Under the pieces are notes generated by a model. That model had not been told where the DNA came from and ran no database searches. It saw only the letters and a list, made by a program, of their open reading frames with translations. DNA of 64,000 nt from a virus (lineage: Duplodnaviria > Caudoviricetes), in the IMG/VR virus record IMGVR_UViG_3300038679_000357, positions 191,143 to 255,142 of that record; one strand, 5' to 3'. A program made the position numbers and the translations under genes. Every line of letters starts with the position of its first letter. Positions within the stretch are counted from its first letter, which is position 1. This document shows positions 3,951 through 46,525 of this stretch, in pieces.

Positions 3951-5572
3951 TAAACACCACACGCACAGTTATAGTCAATAATAAACGCAGAGTTAGGCGC
4001 TCCAGATGCCGTAAATCTATATGTTGCGGAATAAATAAATGTATGGTCTACATAGCTATAGCTCCCCCAACTACCATACGCAACCCACGAAGATCCATCC
4101 CAACGCTGAATATCCCACGAGTTATTTATGGCTGTCGATATAAAAACTCTATCTCCATCGTTAAAATATACATCAACAGGCGGTGGAGTATTATTATTTG
4201 TGTCAATCCTAATAAGAATACATCCATTTGGGTCTGGATTGTTACAATATCCAGATGGATACCAATAGTAATGACACATATTTCCGTATGCACATGCAGG
4301 AGCGCCATAAGTTGAACAACATGTATATCCAGGAATATATGGATCAGTTGAACTTGAACTACTAGATGACGAACTTGAACTCGATGAAGAGCTATAGCTC
4401 GACGAACTAGAAAAAGATCCAGAAGAGCTTGATGACGGACTGTTTGATGAACTTGAACTCGGGAAAGATTCATCGACTCCAATCAAATGAAGCCACCTGC
4501 ATTTTCTCCACGGAATCCACTTTGATGAAATATAATCAAAATACGACACCGACAGTCCAGACTCGCCAAGAGAGTAGGCAACTGGACATTTCCAATGTCG
4601 ATGAACTATAACGCCAGATCTATATTCGCATGTCACGCCAGGATCAAACGGGCGAATATTCCCATTCATTGCAGACCATCTTCCGCCAGGCGTACAAACA
4701 GATACCGACTGGCGAAATATATTTTCCTCAATATCGTATGTCACAGACGAAACAGCGGCAGTGCCATCAGTTGAAATATCATACGAATTCCACCTAGACC
4801 ACCTATCCGGATCAGACACATAACGAAACGGCGTTTCTCCATCAAAAGAATAAGAACGAAAGTAGTTGTACGACTCAGACTCTCTTAGAATAAAGAGAAA
4901 GGGGGCGTTACACCAGAATGAATACGTATCTCCTCCAAATTCAACAGACTTAAAACTCTGTTTTGGGTAAGAAACCATCATCTTTGAAGCAAGAATGGTA
5001 ATGTCATTTCCAACCAATAACGCCCCATGAAGAATGTATCCTGACAGAGAAGTGACCATTTGGACTCTCGAACTCATGTCATATACTCTGATCACATTAC
5101 GAGAATCCTGAACAACGAGCATCACTCCACCATCCGGCATATAAACGGGAACAGACACACAGGCTTCTATATTTGGTAGAAGTGAATCATTCCCATAGAC
5201 TGGCTTCCACTCCCTCGGATCGACAACATCTGGCTTGAATCTTTTTCTAACAAGAATAGGAGCATCAAATTCAGAAACGGACGGATGATAAACTCTTGGG
5301 TCAAAGGATGGAACTGAAATAATAGGTTGTGACGCCCTATCTTCTGCTAAAAACGGAGTAGCTCCAGCAATATTTATGTTTTGCCTGACGGTGGATACTA
5401 AATCAACAGACGTTAAGGCGGCAAAGTTCTGATTAGTATACCATACCGCACCAGAGCCATCAATCATAGCGACATGAAGCTTTTTCCCAGAAAACATCCC
5501 CATTTCCACAATGCCAGAGCCGACAAAGTGAAACGACAAATCATAAGAACCACATTGTTCTATAACCGACAT
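3950..5572 (-). CDS. Virion structural protein (beta-rich) with ~40-aa Ser-rich tract and Cys/Tyr-rich C-terminal domain
   Basis: 540-aa ORF; SSSSSNSPSSSSSGSFSSSSSYSSSSSSSSSSSSSS tract at about 4345-4465. Confidence 0.7.
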   Translation of the reverse strand: MSVIEQCGSYDLSFHFVGSGIVEMGMFSGKKLHVAMIDGSGAVWYTNQNFAALTSVDLVSTVRQNINIAGATPFLAEDRASQPIISVPSFDPRVYHPSVSEFDAPILVRKRFKPDVVDPREWKPVYGNDSLLPNIEACVSVPVYMPDGGVMLVVQDSRNVIRVYDMSSRVQMVTSLSGYILHGALLVGNDITILASKMMVSYPKQSFKSVEFGGDTYSFWCNAPFLFILRESESYNYFRSYSFDGETPFRYVSDPDRWSRWNSYDISTDGTAAVSSVTYDIEENIFRQSVSVCTPGGRWSAMNGNIRPFDPGVTCEYRSGVIVHRHWKCPVAYSLGESGLSVSYFDYISSKWIPWRKCRWLHLIGVDESFPSSSSSNSPSSSSSGSFSSSSSYSSSSSSSSSSSSSSSTDPYIPGYTCCSTYGAPACAYGNMCHYYWYPSGYCNNPDPNGCILIRIDTNNNTPPPVDVYFNDGDRVFISTAINNSWDIQRWDGSSWVAYGSWGSYSYVDHTFIYSATYRFTASGAPNSAFIIDYNCACGV

Positions 5573-5578
5573 TCGACC

Positions 5579-6016
5579 TCAAGAAACGTCAAAAATCCAT
5601 TGATATGATACAGTTCCTGTTCCAACCTTATTGGAATTCATTCTGACATTTAAATAAACGTATTGAGACACTCGTGAAGATCTTCCACCAACGGTTACAG
5701 GGGTATTCACTCCTGCAAAAAACCTGGTCAACGTATTTCTAGGCACAAAATCGACATCGTGTTCGATACCAAAATTCCCATTGCCAGCCGATCCATCCGC
5801 CGTGATGTCAGTTGGAGAATCGTTAACTCCGATAAAATCAGAAGCTGTTATTTGAAGCCTCACATTGGAGATAGAATCAACTCCCTCAACTGTCAAATCA
5901 ACAACTCTCACCGGACTATATTTTCCAACTGGAATGTGCCCAAATTCCAATTCATTCACCACGCCGACAAATTTGCCGGTTGTTGGATTATACTCTCTAA
6001 CAATGGTGGTGGGCAT
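5579..6016 (-). CDS. Small beta-sandwich virion structural protein
   Basis: 145-aa ORF with GAGG SD; paralog of the N-terminus of 3060..3950. Confidence 0.7.
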   Translation of the reverse strand: MPTTIVREYNPTTGKFVGVVNELEFGHIPVGKYSPVRVVDLTVEGVDSISNVRLQITASDFIGVNDSPTDITADGSAGNGNFGIEHDVDFVPRNTLTRFFAGVNTPVTVGGRSSRVSQYVYLNVRMNSNKVGTGTVSYQWIFDVS

Positions 6017-6083
6017 GAAATACCTCTTGAAAAAGCTTGTTGTTTAACATATTTTACCGATTATTTTCATAAAACACCTACCA

Positions 6084-7385
6084 TCAAGGAAGCATTGGTG
6101 GAGCCCATGGACCATCGGCAACAACCCTCCAGAAAGAGTACAACGGAGATATTCCGCTGTAAACTGTCGGCATAACGTGAGTGGCAACAACATTAAAAAT
6201 ACGCGGCATCCCTCCCTCAGACGGAGAAACCATAGAGGAGCCGTCAAAGTACATGAATTCAGGTCTGGATAACTCATCATACGAAAAAGCATAATGAACC
6301 AGTGACGTAGAAAGAGGATCTGGAATAAGATCTCCTGGATCAGAAAAATAATCGACAAAATTAGGGCTGGTCCCGTAAATTACCTGTATGTGATAATCTG
6401 TACTCTGCCCAGAAGGAATTGACATTACAATAGACGGCGTATAAGACTGACCAACATCGTCAAAAGACGCCCTTGGAATAAATATCTTCGACGTCCATCC
6501 AGACGATCCTCCAATCCACTTAACCCGACTACACACGTAAAGAGGAGATGAAATCGGGATTGAATTTGTAAAGAGAATCATCTTTTTTCCGGAATAAGAA
6601 GAGCTAACGCCAGAAAAAGGAAATGGCAAAATGGAATAACCATCAAAAAACCTAAACCCGGACGGATTAACACCACTATCGGCGTGAATGATGTAATCTC
6701 CACCAGAAAGATAGTAAGACGGCAGAGGAGACAAACCGACATAGACTTCAGCATGAACATTAAGAGACCACGTTATTCCTTCGCAAATATCAAATACTTG
6801 CGGAAAAACAGCCGATGGATCAAACGTATTCATCGATGGAGATGCATACGAAACATGCCTAATACCAGTAAACGAGCCATTTGCGACAAAAGAATCGGAA
6901 AGATAATATACTGGACGCCAATACACATATAACGGGGAGACGGGGCACGAAAGGTTAAGAATAATGAGTGATACGCTTTTTCCTATCTGACTAGATCCAA
7001 GACCGATATTCGCCCCAGAAGAAGGGAAGCAATATACCGAGTCAGATTCCAAGAAGAAGCCTCCTGCGTCATTGGAAAAACGCTCTGCAACCAACCCGTC
7101 TGTATCCCATCCAGTATACGAAAAATCAGGAGACGTCGAAACAACAACATGAAAATGTACTCTATCATACAATGGATTGTATCCTGGAACGGTCATTCTG
7201 CAATGAATTCCGAATCCGGTAAAACTTGTCAGCGACAAATCAGCCGGTACGAGATCATCAACCGAATCTCTCTTTGATGGAAGTGGACCAAAACCAACCG
7301 TTCCGGCGTTCAAAACAGCGGCGTTAACGCCTCCATCAAACCAAGCGAGCTTGGCATCAACTGGATACATCATGTCCCGCTGCAT
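6084..7385 (-). CDS. Hypothetical structural protein (aromatic/Ser-rich beta protein)
   Basis: 433-aa ORF in the structural operon, coupled to the upstream stop. Confidence 0.65.
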   Translation of the reverse strand: MQRDMMYPVDAKLAWFDGGVNAAVLNAGTVGFGPLPSKRDSVDDLVPADLSLTSFTGFGIHCRMTVPGYNPLYDRVHFHVVVSTSPDFSYTGWDTDGLVAERFSNDAGGFFLESDSVYCFPSSGANIGLGSSQIGKSVSLIILNLSCPVSPLYVYWRPVYYLSDSFVANGSFTGIRHVSYASPSMNTFDPSAVFPQVFDICEGITWSLNVHAEVYVGLSPLPSYYLSGGDYIIHADSGVNPSGFRFFDGYSILPFPFSGVSSSYSGKKMILFTNSIPISSPLYVCSRVKWIGGSSGWTSKIFIPRASFDDVGQSYTPSIVMSIPSGQSTDYHIQVIYGTSPNFVDYFSDPGDLIPDPLSTSLVHYAFSYDELSRPEFMYFDGSSMVSPSEGGMPRIFNVVATHVMPTVYSGISPLYSFWRVVADGPWAPPMLP

Positions 7386-7386
7386 A

Positions 7387-7659
7387 TTACCACCTCCTCA
7401 TCGCCCCGTCTAACGGACATCTTGCTGAGGCAAATTTTGTCTTGATAAGCATCACACAGCCACATACATCGCACATCCCGTTAGAAAATCTTGGACACAA
7501 CTTACACATAGCTTGCCTTCTGGCAGACTCAGAATTACTAACAAACACCACTTTTTTCTTAAAATATGTCTTAAAAACCGATGGAATAAAACTCCATAGG
7601 CTTAAAACCCTCTTTGATATCTGTTTCCAAATACACTTCATGTGATAATTGTACATCAT
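7387..7659 (-). CDS. Small Cys-rich metal-binding protein (DUF6171-like)
   Basis: RRQAMCKLCPRF...GMCDVCGC...KTKFASARCPL pattern. Confidence 0.6.
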   Translation of the reverse strand: MMYNYHMKCIWKQISKRVLSLWSFIPSVFKTYFKKKVVFVSNSESARRQAMCKLCPRFSNGMCDVCGCVMLIKTKFASARCPLDGAMRRW

Positions 7660-39890: not shown

Positions 39891-40208
39891 TCAGTTGATC
39901 AGATCCTTTAGGGTAATGATGTTACCCTTCAGTTTCTGAACCTCTGAAATTATTGAGTCTACAAGTGTTTGATCACCGGCTTTCACCCGCTTCAGGGTGA
40001 AAGCCATATTATCAATACTGTTCATAGCTTCAATAAATGGGGTTGGCTCGTCTTGATTAACAAGATTATTACCGAGATCTTCGACAGGAGTCTGTTTCTG
40101 TGGCTCTACGGCTGCAATCGGTTGAGGAGCCATAACTGTACCTGTCTGAGCTGTTTTGATCGCCCTGGCGATGTTCTTGGATAAAATTTCGTCAAAAGAG
40201 CTTTTCAT
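39891..40208 (-). CDS. Hypothetical protein
   Basis: 105 aa with a 4-bp overlap with the upstream gene; AIKTAQ motif. Confidence 0.65.
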   Translation of the reverse strand: MKSSFDEILSKNIARAIKTAQTGTVMAPQPIAAVEPQKQTPVEDLGNNLVNQDEPTPFIEAMNSIDNMAFTLKRVKAGDQTLVDSIISEVQKLKGNIITLKDLIN

Positions 40209-40942
40209 GGTGTCTTTCCTTGTTGTGCTTTCAAATTAGCTTCCAATAACTTAGTCATTTTGTCAATGCTTGTGTCAAGTTTGACATTCATGTTCTCTAT
40301 TTTCTTTTCTACGTCATCAATCCTCTTTTGATTATACTTGAAATCAGCCAAAAATACGATAATGGCTGTAAGAAGAGTGAAAATTCCTAGAATGAGCCCC
40401 TTACTCATTTCCGGGATAAACTTAAACCATGGGGAGGTAATATCTTTGATCTGGTTCTTTTCACTTATGGCTTTATCGGATGTAGTTTTTTCATTCGATG
40501 TTTTTGTTTTAGAATTGTTTCGCTCTGCCAATTTTTCAAAGAAATTGTTGTTCATATGATGAAGAACATCCAGAGGAACAACTTGAGATAGGAAATAGAG
40601 AAAATTACCATCTCCATCTTTCAAGAGATGAACAGTGACTGATCCCCACACAAGGCGTCCAGATTTCGTAATATATCGCTTGCACATGGAATAGTAAGGG
40701 ACCTCAAACTCACCGTCCTTTAATTGTTTGTGCATCTCCAGGTCTGACATGAGGTCTTCTGGGTGTGTAAGATCCTGCCAGCGCTTACGAAGTAATTCAT
40801 CTTCGGTGTACTCCCAAAAACGTTGCGCCATGGAATTCACATAAATAAAGCGACCGTTTTCGTTCATCAACGCAATTACAATTGGAGATTCACTCCACAC
40901 CGCGTTGATAAAATTTTCGTTGGAAAGTACATCCTGATTCAT
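40205..40942 (-). CDS. PAS-domain protein with a single C-terminal TM helix and coiled coil
   Basis: PAS/PAC signatures (NGRFIYVN, YTEDELL...WQDLTHPED, KRYITKSGRLVW); hydrophobic GLILGIFTLLTAIIVFLA; heptad C-terminus. Confidence 0.85.
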   Translation of the reverse strand: MNQDVLSNENFINAVWSESPIVIALMNENGRFIYVNSMAQRFWEYTEDELLRKRWQDLTHPEDLMSDLEMHKQLKDGEFEVPYYSMCKRYITKSGRLVWGSVTVHLLKDGDGNFLYFLSQVVPLDVLHHMNNNFFEKLAERNNSKTKTSNEKTTSDKAISEKNQIKDITSPWFKFIPEMSKGLILGIFTLLTAIIVFLADFKYNQKRIDDVEKKIENMNVKLDTSIDKMTKLLEANLKAQQGKTP

Positions 40943-40982
40943 GATATTCCCCTACGTGTTCCTTTATAGTAAGATTCACGTG

Positions 40983-41019
40983 AAAATAGCTTCCCTCCTC
41001 CCATCGTGTCAACTTTTGT
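40983..41019 (-). promoter_or_regulatory. Promoter with perfect -35 (ACAAAAGTTGACA) upstream of the PAS gene
   Basis: The minus strand reads TTGACA-18 nt-TATTTT. The same 13-mer occurs at 50003-50015. Confidence 0.5.
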
Positions 41020-41060
41020 ATTAATTTCTGCGTGATGTCTGCCTTTGCGGTATTCACTCA

Positions 41061-41083
41061 GAAAACTCATAACATGATATGAG
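41061..41083 (-). terminator. Weak AU-rich terminator after the tail fibre assembly gene
   Basis: CTCATA-TCATGT-TATGAG followed by TTTTCT on the minus strand. Confidence 0.4.
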
Positions 41084-41088
41084 AAACG

Positions 41089-41637
41089 TTAAAGTCTTGG
41101 GTCGGTCCAGTTTGCCAACTGCTCACAGGTCATTTGCTCAAGGGCTGTCTTTAATACCCAGCCTGTCTGTATTGTATTCTCCATCCATTGGAAGCTATAA
41201 AGTATAAAGTTTATCAAATCTTGTTCTGTGTTCAAGGTGTAATAATTCTCTCCAACACCCTTAAAAACATATGGAAAAGTTACGTATTGTCTTAAATCGT
41301 ATACACCTTTGTATGTGCTCTGGTGTTCCAAATCCATTTTAAATCTGACATTGTCGGAATATGGGTATATAAAACCATTGGCTATCAATTCATCAGTGGT
41401 ATTATCTATCTGATCTCTTATGCCTTGTATTACTCTTGGTCGACAATAAACATATGCCCAGGCATTATATTCTAGTTGAAACTCTGCTTTACGGGCATCC
41501 AACTGTTCTAATGTCATTATTGTGTAACCAGGAAGCGATATAACAGAATCAGCTACTTCATTTACGATAGTTGGATATTCTTCTGGAGCACCTTCAGGAT
41601 TACTGATATCGCCATAAAATTGTACTGCATACTTCAT
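41089..41637 (-). CDS. Tail fibre-associated protein (DUF4376-like C-terminal domain)
   Basis: IRDQIDNTTDELIANGFIY...RFKMDLEHQ; lies downstream of the long fibre gene. Confidence 0.6.
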   Translation of the reverse strand: MKYAVQFYGDISNPEGAPEEYPTIVNEVADSVISLPGYTIMTLEQLDARKAEFQLEYNAWAYVYCRPRVIQGIRDQIDNTTDELIANGFIYPYSDNVRFKMDLEHQSTYKGVYDLRQYVTFPYVFKGVGENYYTLNTEQDLINFILYSFQWMENTIQTGWVLKTALEQMTCEQLANWTDPRL

Positions 41638-41644
41638 ATTACAC

Positions 41645-44600
41645 CTATGTGGTCTGCGTTAATCTTGCAACAGAACCCACTCTCACACTGACAGCCGTTC
41701 CTGTTTCTGACGCAAATCTAACGGCAAGCGTCCCAGAATTATTTCCATTGTCGAGGATACATACCAATCTTCCTCTTAAATTAGTATTGGCAGTTGCACT
41801 CGCTGTGGCAGTTCCTGTATCATAGGCATTTTGATTTCCTACAACTTGTGCCGTGGCGGTTGTCATTATTTGAGTAAAAATTTGTACAGAAGTTGGGGTG
41901 GCTGGTCCATTAACTCCAAATGCGATACCGGTACCTGCAGCAGTGGACTGGTAAATAATTTCACACTCAAGTAGATAACTTGTATTTGCTGCCACAGAAA
42001 AGGTCAATCCTGTGATGTCTGCAAATGACGTACTGGTACTGGTAACTGTTCCTGTAACTCTTGCTACGGTGGTTGGAACATGTTTTAAATCGTAAAATTC
42101 GAGAGCTGTAGCTCCAGAATTAACTCTAACTACATTTAACCCATTGCCAGTATACGAAGTTGGAACGTCATCAAGCTGTGTAAAGTGCCTTGTAGCTAAA
42201 TCAGCCAATGAACTTCCTGTTTTGTCCACCTTGTTCCATGCGATAGCCGTGGCATTCCATGATCCTGTAGTGATAGTTCCCAGAGTGGTAATATTCGTAG
42301 AGCCTGCAAAAGCTCCGACATAAGTGACTACAGCCTTCTGTGTGGAAAGCCTTGAATCCGAATTGGCGGTCATTAAACCATCTGCGTCAAATAAACTGAT
42401 GCTTGCCCCCGTTGTAAACGACAACGCGCCAGAAGCTCCTATGGAAAATAGTTTTGTCAAATTTTCATCATCAATCCTCAGTATATCGCCTGTCTGGGAA
42501 GTGATCCTAATTATATCGAGACCAATTGATGCTGTCTGTTGACAAGGTATTAACACACTTGCCCGAGAAGAAGTACCAATAGCTGTTGGTGCGGCTTCAA
42601 CACTTGTTTGTTGATTTGCCTTGAGTATTAATCCCCACCATGCTTGTATTGCCGACTGACCACCGACAACAGGCTGTAGAGACATATCAGGACCAGTTCC
42701 CATTATATAGGAAGTTGACCTAAAACTATTCTGTAAATAAACTTGTGAAGAACAAACCCAATTTCCACCTACACTTGGCATTCTTGCAATAGCCAGATTC
42801 CCTGATGTTAAGTCAGATGCGCTTCTTGTTTGTAAATCAGCAAGACTTGAACCCGTTTTACTTATATTTGACCAACCTATATTGGTTAAAAGACTAGCGT
42901 TCAACGCCGGAAGATAACCGGAGGAATTTGTTTGTACAAGTTGAGACGTCCCGTTAAATGTATTACCTTGTGCGGTAACATTTGTATCAAGATAGGTTGT
43001 ACCGATCCTGCTACCTGTCCAAGTTCCAGATGTTATCGTTCCAACAGTTGCTATATTTGAACTGCCAGTCCAGGCGGCAAGTTCTGTATCTGTAACCCTG
43101 TCATTCAGCGCATTCTGTAAATCAGTCTGATTAGATAGCGTCCCCGTTATAGAACCCCACGTGACCGAAACTGCTGGAAGTCTTGACCATCCTGTTGATG
43201 TTTTTATAACCCAATCTCCAACCTCCCAAGTAGTTATTCCTCCGAGGTTAGTAGATCCAGCGGTTGTAACTACCCAGAAATATCCAGCAACAGTAGCACC
43301 CGTTATGTCTGGAGTATTTGTACTGGCATTCCAAGTAGTTTGATATTGTAAACCACCAGAAGTAGCTTCGTCTACGTATTTTTTGTTCGGTATATCATTA
43401 TCACTCGTAACGAGATCTTCGTAGTTGGCGATGCCAGTGGAAAGAGTTCCGTCCAATTCCATTTGGAAAATTAAATCATTGTCACCAGAAACATCTTTGT
43501 AAAATTTGATGGCACGATTATATTTATGGCTGATTATTGCATCTATGCCAGTCGTATTGAAATCAATACCACCATACTTAAATAGCGTTTCATAGCTTGT
43601 ATTGTCCCCACCTTGCCTCATTGATATACTAACTGTATCGTCATCATCAACATTCAGTCTGATATTTCTACCAGAAACTGTGGCATTTTCAACGTTAAGG
43701 GTGGTACCAACTCCATCTGGAGCTTTAATAAATACTCTTCCTCCACCGCTTATATAAAAAACAGGTGAATGATCAAGATGCCCGGCGTATACGGCAAATC
43801 TCTTTCCGCCATGAGGCATGATTGCGGAAAAAACTGGCGCGGTGGTCATTACGGTGGAACTTCTAATTCTTATCCAATACAAATCATATTCATCTGGTTG
43901 TCCAGGTATTTGATACGTATTCCAGTCTGTGAGAGAACTACCATTCCATATAATTTGACCAGATTTAGTTAAATTAAATGTAGAATCACTCAATCCATTT
44001 GCACCGGTAATGGCGGTCCATCCATCCCCTGTTTTGTAATATTCAAATACGAGCGTGGCGTTTACGGCAAATACTGTAGAAATAACTAAACAAGAACTAA
44101 AGTCATGTGTTGCGCCAAGGTATATAGCACCCTTATTAGTATCACCATCACCTATTGGCAATCCTGTAAAAGTATTAGCAAACGTTGTACAAGCGTTATA
44201 AGTTACATCTTCAACTTCTGGAGTTGCGGCAGTATAATCAGTTGTTGTTAATACCTCCTTAAACATCATACCGTGAATTGAGTATGATGCATCTGGGTTA
44301 ATTGAAAAAGCCGTAAAGTTCCAGGCATCATCAGTATTATGTCCAGTAACCGCTCCAAATACTACGGTCACTCCATTTTCAAGTTCTATTGGATCAGTAT
44401 CACAATCTATACTACTTGACCATGAAGTCCAGGTGACGCCCGCGTCATATGATCTCCTGAATTTGAATTGATCTACGGTATCTGCCGTGACTATCCTAAC
44501 TTCAAAGGAAGTATTGTATGACATGCTTGATGAATATTCTCCACCAGCATCCATATCATTTAACGAGCCACTAACTCCACCGGTATATGCTACATGATCA

Positions 44601-46525
44601 TTAACCCAATTCGTTGGTTGTAACCAACCATATCTTCCAGCCGCTGTTACAACCTGCAAATCATATTGGCACTCATGACCCCACAGATAAAAATATTCGC
44701 CCCCCTCATTCCTGTACATGTAATGGTCGAATCTTTGAACCCCGTCAAGAGCATATGAAACACCAGAATCTCCATCTGGAACAGAATCAACCTGAAGCAT
44801 ATTGAAAATATTGTCTAAGTCATCCGGAACGGTATTTGTTCCATATAGGTGTAGGAGGTTGGTTGGAACTGGTTGTGTTACTCCAACTCGCCTGTTAGTC
44901 TTATCTATGAACAATATGGAATTTGGGACTGTTTCATCATCAATTACATTGAGATCACCTGTAAGTTCCCAACTTCCTGATACCGGCATCCTCGCAATAT
45001 CGAAATTTCCTGTTTCTATCAACGCAGTATCATGCAGGTCAGTATACTCTTGCGATGTAAGATGAAAATATTCCCCCTCAATGCCACCCTCGATAGAACC
45101 TAAATCATTGTGATTGGTGGCTGGTTGAGTGATAAATGTTTGTATAAAAGCGCTATCAATTTGTGTTGCTGTATCAGAACTTTTTTTAACAATTATTCTA
45201 CCAACTAAAATCGCCATTATTGAAAGAATTGTAGGCGGCGTTGGCGGTTGACTATTTTTAGCTTGAGTTATGTCGTAATCTCCGCTACCAAGAATAACTG
45301 CAATATGCTTTGGCGTTTCAATAAACCTATAAACCCAGTTAACTACATATTTATTGCTTCCCACCGTCTGCAGGTCTGTTCCGTCATCATATTGAAGATT
45401 GTTATAGGCAGTTAAGGCAGATTGAACCCATTCTCCAGAAAAATGATAATAGAGCCAGGAAACATCGACGTCACTTTGAACGGCGTCGAGCGTGTAGTTT
45501 TTGCATCCATAATATACCACACCATAACTTAAATCTATGTGTCTTGTAGGACTTTCAGATAGGGTTAGCCCTGAAGTTCTAACAAACCGTTGTGTTTGAA
45601 TAAGTCTGTCATTAATTCTTGTTGAAGTGGCGGTGGCAAAATTGGCTTGTAATATATGAAGAATTGTTCCCTCTCTCCAGATTCCAGCAACAAACACTCT
45701 ATCGCTGTTATTTAGCGTGGCTGGGTTTGTGGTTGTCGTATATTCTGGAGAACCGCTATTATAATTTACATAGACGTAGTTTATGGAGTTATTGACTAAT
45801 GAAACGTTTGTTCTAGCAGGAATGGTATATTTACTTAAAAAACCAGTCCATCCTGATGCAGAATACAGATAGCAATCGCCAGAGTCTATATTAACGGTGC
45901 CATCTCCGTTATTCGTTACTAGATCTGACCTCAACATACCTACAGTGTGTTGATGATCATCAAGCCTGTCAAAGGCTTTTTGAATAGTATCATCAGAAGT
46001 CAGAAGCAATGATGAAAAATTAGTTGTTGTTACTCCTATGTCAGAGCCAATAAGAGAAATATTAGCATTCAACTGCTTTCCATTTACCGTCCTGGATAAT
46101 GGAACGAAAGCGCCAGCACCATAAGATGCAACATAGGATTTGATTGCTTTCTGGGTCGGTATCCTACTGTTACTATCTGCTGCAAGCAGCACATCAGTAT
46201 CGAATAAATTGATGCTCGCACCAGCACCAAGGGTAAGACCTGCCGCACCAACAGAAGCTATAACTGTATCATCTTCAGTAACCCACTCTTGCCAATTTGC
46301 CGACTGATCTACCGCCCCCTTAATAGTGAGTGGAACGATTAACGCTCCTAAACTATTGATTAATGTTGGAGAACTAAAAATATGAATATCCAAACCAGCA
46401 TCATAGGTATAGGCGATACCGGTAGTGTTTCTGTTAAAAACAATATCGGCATCAGAAAATTCGGCGTTAACAAGCAGACCACCGATTATAGCGGCGTCCT
46501 TTCTGATGATATGCTTGTTTGCCAT
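41645..46525 (-). CDS. Long tail fibre / receptor-binding protein with internal module duplications
   Basis: 1626-aa Thr/Gly/Ser-rich protein; RTVNGKQLNANISL, WNASTNTP and GTITSGTW motifs; duplicated GASI.LFD...DSR..TQKA..YV and KTGSSLADL.TR modules. Confidence 0.85.
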   Translation of the reverse strand: MANKHIIRKDAAIIGGLLVNAEFSDADIVFNRNTTGIAYTYDAGLDIHIFSSPTLINSLGALIVPLTIKGAVDQSANWQEWVTEDDTVIASVGAAGLTLGAGASINLFDTDVLLAADSNSRIPTQKAIKSYVASYGAGAFVPLSRTVNGKQLNANISLIGSDIGVTTTNFSSLLLTSDDTIQKAFDRLDDHQHTVGMLRSDLVTNNGDGTVNIDSGDCYLYSASGWTGFLSKYTIPARTNVSLVNNSINYVYVNYNSGSPEYTTTTNPATLNNSDRVFVAGIWREGTILHILQANFATATSTRINDRLIQTQRFVRTSGLTLSESPTRHIDLSYGVVYYGCKNYTLDAVQSDVDVSWLYYHFSGEWVQSALTAYNNLQYDDGTDLQTVGSNKYVVNWVYRFIETPKHIAVILGSGDYDITQAKNSQPPTPPTILSIMAILVGRIIVKKSSDTATQIDSAFIQTFITQPATNHNDLGSIEGGIEGEYFHLTSQEYTDLHDTALIETGNFDIARMPVSGSWELTGDLNVIDDETVPNSILFIDKTNRRVGVTQPVPTNLLHLYGTNTVPDDLDNIFNMLQVDSVPDGDSGVSYALDGVQRFDHYMYRNEGGEYFYLWGHECQYDLQVVTAAGRYGWLQPTNWVNDHVAYTGGVSGSLNDMDAGGEYSSSMSYNTSFEVRIVTADTVDQFKFRRSYDAGVTWTSWSSSIDCDTDPIELENGVTVVFGAVTGHNTDDAWNFTAFSINPDASYSIHGMMFKEVLTTTDYTAATPEVEDVTYNACTTFANTFTGLPIGDGDTNKGAIYLGATHDFSSCLVISTVFAVNATLVFEYYKTGDGWTAITGANGLSDSTFNLTKSGQIIWNGSSLTDWNTYQIPGQPDEYDLYWIRIRSSTVMTTAPVFSAIMPHGGKRFAVYAGHLDHSPVFYISGGGRVFIKAPDGVGTTLNVENATVSGRNIRLNVDDDDTVSISMRQGGDNTSYETLFKYGGIDFNTTGIDAIISHKYNRAIKFYKDVSGDNDLIFQMELDGTLSTGIANYEDLVTSDNDIPNKKYVDEATSGGLQYQTTWNASTNTPDITGATVAGYFWVVTTAGSTNLGGITTWEVGDWVIKTSTGWSRLPAVSVTWGSITGTLSNQTDLQNALNDRVTDTELAAWTGSSNIATVGTITSGTWTGSRIGTTYLDTNVTAQGNTFNGTSQLVQTNSSGYLPALNASLLTNIGWSNISKTGSSLADLQTRSASDLTSGNLAIARMPSVGGNWVCSSQVYLQNSFRSTSYIMGTGPDMSLQPVVGGQSAIQAWWGLILKANQQTSVEAAPTAIGTSSRASVLIPCQQTASIGLDIIRITSQTGDILRIDDENLTKLFSIGASGALSFTTGASISLFDADGLMTANSDSRLSTQKAVVTYVGAFAGSTNITTLGTITTGSWNATAIAWNKVDKTGSSLADLATRHFTQLDDVPTSYTGNGLNVVRVNSGATALEFYDLKHVPTTVARVTGTVTSTSTSFADITGLTFSVAANTSYLLECEIIYQSTAAGTGIAFGVNGPATPTSVQIFTQIMTTATAQVVGNQNAYDTGTATASATANTNLRGRLVCILDNGNNSGTLAVRFASETGTAVSVRVGSVARLTQTT

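Follow-up and report, generated by a model that had tools for sequence, protein, structure and literature searches.

What could a PAS sensor domain be doing in a tailed phage when it is joined to a single transmembrane (TM) helix and to no detectable enzymatic output? The question is raised by an open reading frame (ORF) of 245 amino acids (aa) with an ATG start (P0001), hereafter the PAS-TM gene, on the minus strand of a 64,000-nt stretch of phage DNA. This stretch, which we call the window, is the last 64 kb of the 255,142-bp IMG/VR record IMGVR_UViG_3300038679_000357 (G000) and ends exactly at the record end. A first-pass annotation of the window, which did not state the strand of the gene, had connected it with lysis. 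Judging from sequence comparisons, we conclude that its product belongs to a phage clade of output-less, C-terminally membrane-anchored PAS proteins, and several members of this clade are encoded beside or near endolysin genes. The reading that we tentatively favour, for which the gene context of the relatives is the source, is a late, membrane-tethered PAS sensor that modulates the timing of lysis and is not the holin itself.

Architecture of the protein and its relatives

Agreement among Pfam, an AlphaFold2 model, hydropathy and shuffling tests bore out the layout described in the first-pass annotation, namely a PAS domain, a polar linker, one TM helix on the C-terminal side and a heptad tail, with no kinase or cyclase output. 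Over residues 17-118, three Pfam models scored above their curated gathering cut-offs (PAS_9, 38.9 bits against 27; PAS_3, 36.2 against 25.6; PAS, 31.2 against 22.6). In the AlphaFold2 model, which was built on nine homologues, residues 9-123 take up the PAS fold with a predicted local distance difference test (pLDDT) score of about 90, as a five-stranded antiparallel sheet flanked by helices (strands 22-26, 31-35, 83-91, 97-108 and 114-123). Foldseek comparison with solved PAS domains gave E values of 1e-8 to 1e-6 and TM-scores by target of 0.76-0.85, and the neighbours of the core included a kinase PAS domain (3olo), short LOV proteins, NifL, DosP and ARNT. The short LOV proteins among the top matches align over 134-152 columns, past the bare PAS core, which may reflect coverage of the helix predicted at residues 125-145.

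The linker that follows (about residues 146-175) is rich in K, N, S and T and differs in length among homologues. A lone hydrophobic peak, with a Kyte-Doolittle value of 2.5 over residues 183-201, marks the TM helix and is present in all nine members of the family described below, and the AlphaFold2 model draws residues 178-241 as one uninterrupted helix. In each of the nine tails the best a/d register holds 55-85% I, L, V or M, against 21-30% overall, a value reached by just 0-91 of 2000 shuffles, and the family alignment contains one indel exactly seven columns long. When the C-terminal TM and coiled-coil pieces were searched against 5.8 billion proteins, nothing was found at E<=0.01, and a search of the ESM Atlas with the tail gave nothing but small phage proteins without a name, all scoring below 0.9.

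No match to HisKA, HATPase_c, GGDEF or EAL appeared in the 245-aa protein even at E<=1, and Pfam detected in it no kinase, cyclase, EAL or other output domain. The HisKA/DHp and HATPase_c pair of a sensor histidine kinase is thus lacking, and the protein ends 45 aa past the TM helix. We infer an N-in/C-out topology, with the PAS domain in the cytoplasm and the C-terminal heptad helix in the periplasm, because the N-terminal 180 residues carry no signal peptide and the PAS domain is of cytoplasmic type; the charges flanking the TM helix do not decide the topology.

Candidate chemistries for the sensor were also considered. C87, the one cysteine of the protein, belongs to the fourth of the predicted strands (residues 83-91), and a LOV or flavin photosensor was rejected because the NCRFL-type motif with its adduct-forming cysteine is absent. 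Within the huge-phage family H71, C87 and H105 never vary, but the wider clade does not conserve H71 and C87; a haem or metal reading was dropped and no cofactor is proposed.

The immediate relatives are few. A search of 5.8 billion proteins yielded eight homologues of 207-243 aa and 38-67% identity, all of which keep the order of PAS domain, linker, TM helix and heptad tail. The alignment of the nine proteins has 38 invariant positions, among them F197 and D200, where the TM helix ends, and the proteins stop at equivalent end points. A profile search of 1.84 billion representatives recovered mostly multi-PAS kinases and only two representatives of the family, and among cultured phages neither megablast of the region nor tblastn of the protein found a match in 50,697 phage records. 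Six relatives could be placed on contigs, two of them on contigs of about 500 kb and about 470 kb, which represent huge phages, and four on fragments of 9-41 kb. In all six, large and variable fibre- or adhesin-like genes are followed by the PAS gene and then by a convergent RdgC-like gene and a gap of about 500 bp. Where the contig extends upstream, the fibre- or adhesin-like genes match PA14, RHS, Laminin_G_3 or DUF2793; where it extends beyond the gap, genes for an SMC/AAA ATPase and glycosyltransferases come next. The PAS gene of these relatives usually has a 79-109-aa ORF overlapping it by 4 nt.

Scanning IMG/VR and JGI metagenome contigs with the family alignments revealed a wider clade. 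The scans turned up numerous viral PAS proteins of only 124-234 aa that have the motifs W-x-D-[IL]-T-H-P-[ED]-D and K-R-Y-I-T-K in common with the PAS domain studied here and carry a hydrophobic C-terminal helix a few tens of residues past the PAS core, and the 245-aa protein shows the defining features of this clade, i.e., a length below about 250 aa, no output domain and a hydrophobic helix after the PAS core. A 61-row maximum-likelihood tree made with IQ-TREE separated the nine family members and four viral PAS proteins with hydrophobic C-terminal tails (support of the split, 98/94) from 45 bacterial multi-PAS domains and three viral PAS-only or PAS-EAL proteins; two of the clade members, L016 and L017, were sister to the nine-member family (95/80). 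In a 119-row quick tree, 40 short PAS proteins split from 79 long or bacterial ones with a value of 90 in the Shimodaira-Hasegawa-like approximate likelihood ratio test (SH-aLRT), and the 40 comprised 20 of the 21 PAS-TM proteins, all nine family members and 11 other short ones. Within this clade the huge-phage branch is peculiar in its longer linker, in an added coiled coil of 45-53 aa that is predicted to be periplasmic, in the usually coupled partner ORF and in its position away from the endolysin. Foldseek also pointed to short PAS-fold proteins in cultured Cellulophaga phages, the BFVD entries R9ZZL0 of phi19:1 (240 aa, E 4e-4) and S0A2B2 of phi18:3 (172 aa, E 1e-3), which are possible tractable models for output-less phage PAS proteins.

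The lysis neighbourhoods of this clade are the evidence on which we place most weight. On a 52-kb contig (L016; IMG/VR 3300006916_000006), the PAS-TM gene overlaps an amidase endolysin gene by ATGA (phrog_822, E 5.5e-66). This unusually rich cassette (4990-7563) opens with a four-TM protein, a protein with a coiled coil and a C-terminal TM helix, and the PAS-TM protein, and after the amidase come a holin-like protein of 73 aa that has two hydrophobic stretches, an i-spanin resembling Rz and, overlapping, an o-spanin whose lipobox is LISGC. Further PAS genes of the clade lie 0.4-1.7 kb upstream of GH24-, CHAP- or M15-type endolysins. The order in L033 is a tail fibre gene, the PAS-TM gene, genes for an 88-aa TM protein and a 159-aa protein (two or three hydrophobic stretches, phrog_6637), and then a GH24 endolysin gene (phrog_7, E 2.7e-36), the genes overlapping from PAS-TM on. 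In L038, represented by five contigs, a tail fibre gene precedes a PAS gene whose product has a weakly hydrophobic tail, and a 58-aa hydrophobic protein, a lipoprotein and a CHAP-type endolysin (phrog_9589, E 4.8e-13) follow; we read the 58-aa protein as holin-like, and it falls under the hydropathy threshold used. In L017 a tail protein gene and the PAS-TM gene are followed 1.7 kb downstream by an M15 endolysin gene and then by genes for a two-TM protein and a lipoprotein. An endolysin gene is adjacent to the PAS gene in L060 (E 4.8e-8), and genes for Rz-like spanins lie 0.6-0.9 kb downstream of it in L069 and L073. Because at least five endolysin types occur among these neighbourhoods and the types differ between lineages, the association with lysis is not one inherited cassette.

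A second recurrent neighbourhood of PAS-TM genes was seen in L017 (4971-5429) and L030 (5536-6798), where a small ORF of Cys-rich, zinc-ribbon-like sequence and a metallophosphoesterase gene (phrog_221) come after it; in L017 a secreted 152-aa protein with an HExxH motif is encoded between these two.

A possible role in lysis timing and the competing explanations

Lysis timing sets burst size and phage fitness, and the known timers are holin concentration clocks, which antiholins or, in T4 and N4, signals of superinfection can tune. In the reading that we favour, the PAS-TM protein would be a bitopic inner-membrane protein in which a flexible linker joins a cytoplasmic PAS domain to a single TM helix and a coiled-coil stub of 45 aa reaches into the periplasm. 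It would be expressed late and would assist or regulate the step that forms the hole or frees the endolysin, in the manner of an antiholin or co-holin. Contact with the lysis machinery in the membrane would be made by the TM helix and, in this protein, by the periplasmic coiled coil as well, while the PAS domain would set the state of the protein (dimerization or conformation) on an intracellular cue. The topology, the late expression, the contact with a holin or endolysin and the nature of the signal are all inferred elements of this scheme. An accessory role is suggested by the finding that every clade member in a lysis cassette is accompanied by a separate small holin-like gene, whose product has about two hydrophobic stretches; the PAS protein therefore looks like an accessory, not the hole former. 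Two lysis proteins that have been studied by experiment, Mu gp25 releasin (PMC9239132) and LysF1b (PMC13056207), offer precedents, as each combines one TM domain with a large cytoplasmic part.

A broader proposal, possible in our view and yet doubtful, is that in many tailed phages, including huge ones of 340-500 kb, a dedicated inner-membrane PAS sensor couples the moment of lysis to the chemical or redox state of the cell, and that the coiled coil and partner of the huge phages also read or transmit a periplasmic signal, as in T4 lysis inhibition. Such a ligand-gated lysis clock would be a class of regulator absent from the searchable lysis literature, in which we found nothing on PAS proteins in jumbo phages, holins, antiholins or lysis cassettes.

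Several observations weigh against a role in lysis, and we list them together. The whole 245-aa protein matches no lysis family of Pfam or PHROG. The C-terminal pieces of the nine family members give weak matches to phrog_1009, a family of unknown function (best E 8e-5), to an Rz-like spanin family (4.6e-4) and to the holin family phrog_1296 (2e-3), and these are likely compositional. For the six placed relatives, the DNA covered around the PAS gene (up to 10 kb on each side, less on short contigs) contained no recognizable endolysin or holin family. In the wider clade, lysis neighbours occur in only about one-third of about 20 lineages, although a rough estimate for a random phage gene is nearer one in ten. 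The neighbours in other lineages are genes for thymidylate synthase (L018), a DNA-binding protein (L062), a cytidylyltransferase (L095), a phosphoesterase and a terminase (L030) or a protease (L049). The two relatives closest in architecture, L082 (959-3232) and L089 (767-3024), which have the PAS-TM-coiled-coil layout, the TM helix being weak and the tail about 45 aa long, directly precede T4-type baseplate wedge genes (gp25-like, phrog_261; gp6-like, phrog_219, E 5e-157). The order of tail genes followed by a lysis cassette is common in phages, and adjacency to lysis genes is thus confounded, because the PAS gene usually follows tail genes, after which lysis genes often come. Finally, the clade tree rests on only 116 columns, and by BLAST the PAS domain is as close to the PAS domains of bacterial kinases (about 42% identity) as to L016 (41%). 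The lysis link made in the first-pass annotation has accordingly held in part: endolysin genes do stand beside or near several members of the wider clade, but none was recognized in the DNA covered around the gene in the six placed relatives of the family itself.

How lysis genes are arranged in this genome bears on the same point. The only recognizable endolysin of the record is a 304-aa lysozyme-like protein (PF00959, 22.5 bits; phrog_7 endolysin, E 4.5e-7), encoded 182 kb away from the PAS-TM gene, upstream in the record. It has a hydrophobic segment rich in G, A and S at residues 47-65, which looks from its sequence like a signal anchor of the signal-anchor-release (SAR) type, and then a linker of about 80 aa before the catalytic domain. 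No recognizable holin or spanin gene lies beside it, the neighbours being RecJ-like and radical-SAM-like genes, and no recognized holin was found anywhere in the 255-kb record. The endolysin families PF01464, PF01510 and PF00182 had no match in the genome, the control for PF00182 being uninformative. Since the sole recognizable endolysin has no recognizable holin beside it, the lysis genes appear to be dispersed here; those of T4 are likewise dispersed.

The alternative that survives best, which we consider rather unlikely, assigns the protein to the tail or receptor module as a membrane component without any part in lysis. It could act, for instance, in superinfection exclusion or a block of DNA entry, as a platform for tail or fibre assembly, or as a decoy that pairs with host sensor kinases, a decoy having also been suggested in the first-pass annotation. 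This alternative would fit the position of the gene after large variable fibre- or adhesin-like genes in all six placed relatives, and also the baseplate neighbourhoods of L082 and L089, which share the layout. The site is variable and moron-like, as the upstream neighbour is not conserved and a terminator-like hairpin precedes the gene in the relative L003. The PAS units of bacterial multi-PAS kinases, moreover, share about 40% identity with the PAS domain. Against this alternative, it is hard to see what a cytoplasmic sensor domain would contribute to exclusion or assembly, no family with either function was matched, and clade relatives are translationally coupled to endolysin or holin-like genes.

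That the protein is the holin itself seems improbable. It would then be a class-III-like holin (N-in, C-out, one TM domain) whose triggering is gated by the cytoplasmic PAS domain, and the single strong TM domain with a charged C-terminal tail would suit this. So would the lack of a recognized holin in the record and next to the endolysin, which, if signal-anchored, would need membrane depolarization only for its release. In T4, too, the holin gene t comes right after the tail-fibre genes, far from the endolysin gene e, and three of the nine C-terminal pieces match phrog_1296 weakly. These matches are nevertheless near noise, the relatives in lysis cassettes each have their separate small holin-like gene, which makes the PAS protein accessory, the relatives in small phages keep few residues past the TM helix, and other small TM proteins are encoded elsewhere in this genome. 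Identification of the protein as the holin, which the first-pass annotation had put forward beside an antiholin, is thus not supported: relatives in lysis cassettes have a separate holin-like gene, no holin match rises above noise and the only recognizable endolysin is 182 kb away.

To a dead remnant of a captured host histidine kinase, the finding that the first-pass annotation had named as fatal to its own proposal, we give practically no credence, since the PAS domain is indeed of the common bacterial PAS_3 type but nine full-length proteins keep the PAS domain, linker, TM helix and coiled coil with 38 invariant positions, the synteny is kept across genomes only 40-67% identical in the PAS-TM protein, and no HisKA or HATPase remnant lies downstream; the conservation of the full architecture and gene order rules out a decaying fragment. 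The probability left over from these explanations belongs to something that we have not thought of.

If a lysis-timing role is true, phages would read a small-molecule, redox or energy cue inside the host to time its bursting, and the protein would be a compact natural switch for ligand-controlled lysis. The lysis systems of huge phages are almost unknown, and the PAS protein together with the putatively signal-anchored lysozyme provides concrete starting points. If there is no lysis role, what remains is a PAS protein that has no output domain, is tethered to the membrane and is conserved near the tail-fibre genes of several very large phages.

The locus and its upstream region

The features of the locus are collected in Table 1. 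The first-pass annotation had placed the gene after the tail fibre module, and this was verified: on the 5' side of the gene lies the coding sequence of a 1626-aa protein that resembles annotated tail fibre proteins (45.7% identity over about 310 aa, E 1e-61), with a 182-aa ORF between the two genes. On the other side, a 105-aa ORF starts within the end of the PAS-TM gene and then converges on the RdgC-like gene of the opposite strand. Its product lacks a TM helix, cysteines and a lipobox; it is 34% identical to the copy in the 500-kb phage (E 1e-16), and by this comparison we take the ORF to be a real conserved gene. An ORF of this type is absent from the closest relative, L007. A complex prediction for the PAS protein and the product of the 105-aa ORF gave a score of 0.00 and so counts neither for nor against an interaction. 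Pfam and PHROG matches are lacking for most of the neighbouring ORFs.

Table 1. Positions of the PAS-TM gene, the parts of its product and other features discussed in the text (window coordinates except where stated)
Feature	Position	Strand	Basis or remark
245-aa PAS-TM ORF	40205..40942	minus	Stop codon 40205-40207
PAS domain, residues 9-123, PAS_3/PAS_9 type	40574..40918	minus	Pfam, AlphaFold2, Foldseek, invariant columns
Helix after PAS core, residues 125-145, J-alpha position, low confidence	40508..40570	minus	DSSP on AlphaFold2 model
Disordered polar linker, residues 146-177	40412..40507	minus	pLDDT <50, alignment gaps, composition
Single TM helix, residues about 181-200	40343..40402	minus	Hydropathy, invariant columns
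C-terminal heptad-repeat helix, residues 201-245	40208..40342	minus	Shuffle test, AlphaFold2 model
Putative sigma-70-like site: TTGACA, 18-nt spacer, TATTTT	40983..41012	minus	Promoter-like
182-aa ORF, sub-threshold DUF4376 match	41089..41637	minus	Not conserved in relative L001
1626-aa tail-fibre-like protein	41645..46525	minus	tblastn matches to annotated tail fibre and minor tail proteins
105-aa ORF, start overlaps PAS stop by ATGA	39891..40208	minus	Kept in 5 of 6 relatives
304-aa lysozyme-like ORF	G000:C1:48677-49591 (= L002:1381-2295)	minus	Outside the window

A promoter of its own, TTGACA, had also been assigned to the gene in the first-pass annotation. The hexamer is indeed present on the minus strand at 41012-41007, 70 nt 5' of the ATG of the PAS-TM gene, and with its poor -10 element it gives 10 of 12 matches to the sigma-70 pattern; because the site is conserved only in the nearest relative, L007, we regard it as no better than promoter-like. 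The orthologues have in common a motif in the 30 nt before the start (40943-40975 on the minus strand; L001 and L007), which consists of TATA[AG]A[AG], a few bases, ACGT, a few bases and then GGGG. Boxes resembling TATA[AG]A[AG] occur in some of the orthologous upstream regions. We rejected the box, 26 nt upstream, as a general T4-like late promoter, since it precedes 4 of 259 genes, which is the chance level. The terminator-like hairpin of L003, which is followed by a T-run and lies between the upstream gene and the PAS gene, suggests that the PAS gene is a separate transcription unit in that relative. A 43-aa ORF (40939-41070, minus strand) fills most of the 146-bp gap between the DUF4376-like ORF and the PAS-TM gene and contains the TTGACA hexamer; it has no TM helix and no family match and is probably not a gene.

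IMG/VR labels the record as a provirus, and its completeness by CheckV is 97%. It carries only one PAS domain, and further small TM proteins are encoded elsewhere in the genome. The same PAS protein is recorded on a 340,706-bp contig, and the 85 kb trimmed from this contig may be host DNA or phage DNA mis-called as host.

Comparison with known systems

When we compared the protein with established types, a two-component i-spanin was discarded as a candidate, because the TM helix is C-terminal, the tail has only 45 aa and no lipoprotein ORF is present in any frame. As to holins, the whole protein has no Pfam or PHROG holin match, and the customary picture of a small membrane protein next to an endolysin is found not here but only in distant relatives of the clade. 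The output-less short PAS and LOV proteins (PDB 5luv, 7a6p and 3sw1), which are top Foldseek matches, resemble it in having a PAS core with a C-terminal helix; unlike them, the phage-encoded protein lacks the NCRFL-type cysteine motif and is predicted to be anchored in the membrane.

T4 holin T has a single TM domain in N-in/C-out orientation, and its soluble parts receive timing signals from RI and RIII. The PAS-TM protein, whose predicted topology is the same, resembles the T4 system as a bitopic protein with one TM domain and a soluble domain that would carry timing information, encoded by a presumably late gene that comes after tail-fibre genes and is far from the endolysin. PF11031, the family of holin T, was however not detected in it and there is no sequence similarity, and the sizes of the domains are reversed, the large part here being the cytoplasmic PAS fold and the small one periplasmic.

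The gp25 releasin of phage Mu (DUF2730) is a cytoplasmic domain tethered by one TM domain, which is needed for release of a SAR endolysin and is not a holin (PMC9239132). A tethered cytoplasmic domain is common to both proteins, and the phage studied here also has a signal-anchor-like endolysin. The TM domain of the Mu protein, in contrast, is N-terminal (N-out, C-in) and ours C-terminal, our protein has no DUF2730 match, releasin genes lie within five genes of the endolysin, as against 182 kb here, and the PAS relatives in small phages accompany soluble endolysins.

LysF1b of F1-cluster mycobacteriophages is a protein with a single TM domain and a sizeable cytoplasmic part that sets the timing of lysis together with a two-TM-domain holin-like protein (PMC13056207). 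It differs from the PAS-TM protein in its N-out/C-in orientation, in its Gram-positive or mycolata host and in having neither a PAS domain nor homology to it, but a pairing of this kind is also seen in L016, L033 and L038, where the PAS relative is encoded with a small holin-like partner.

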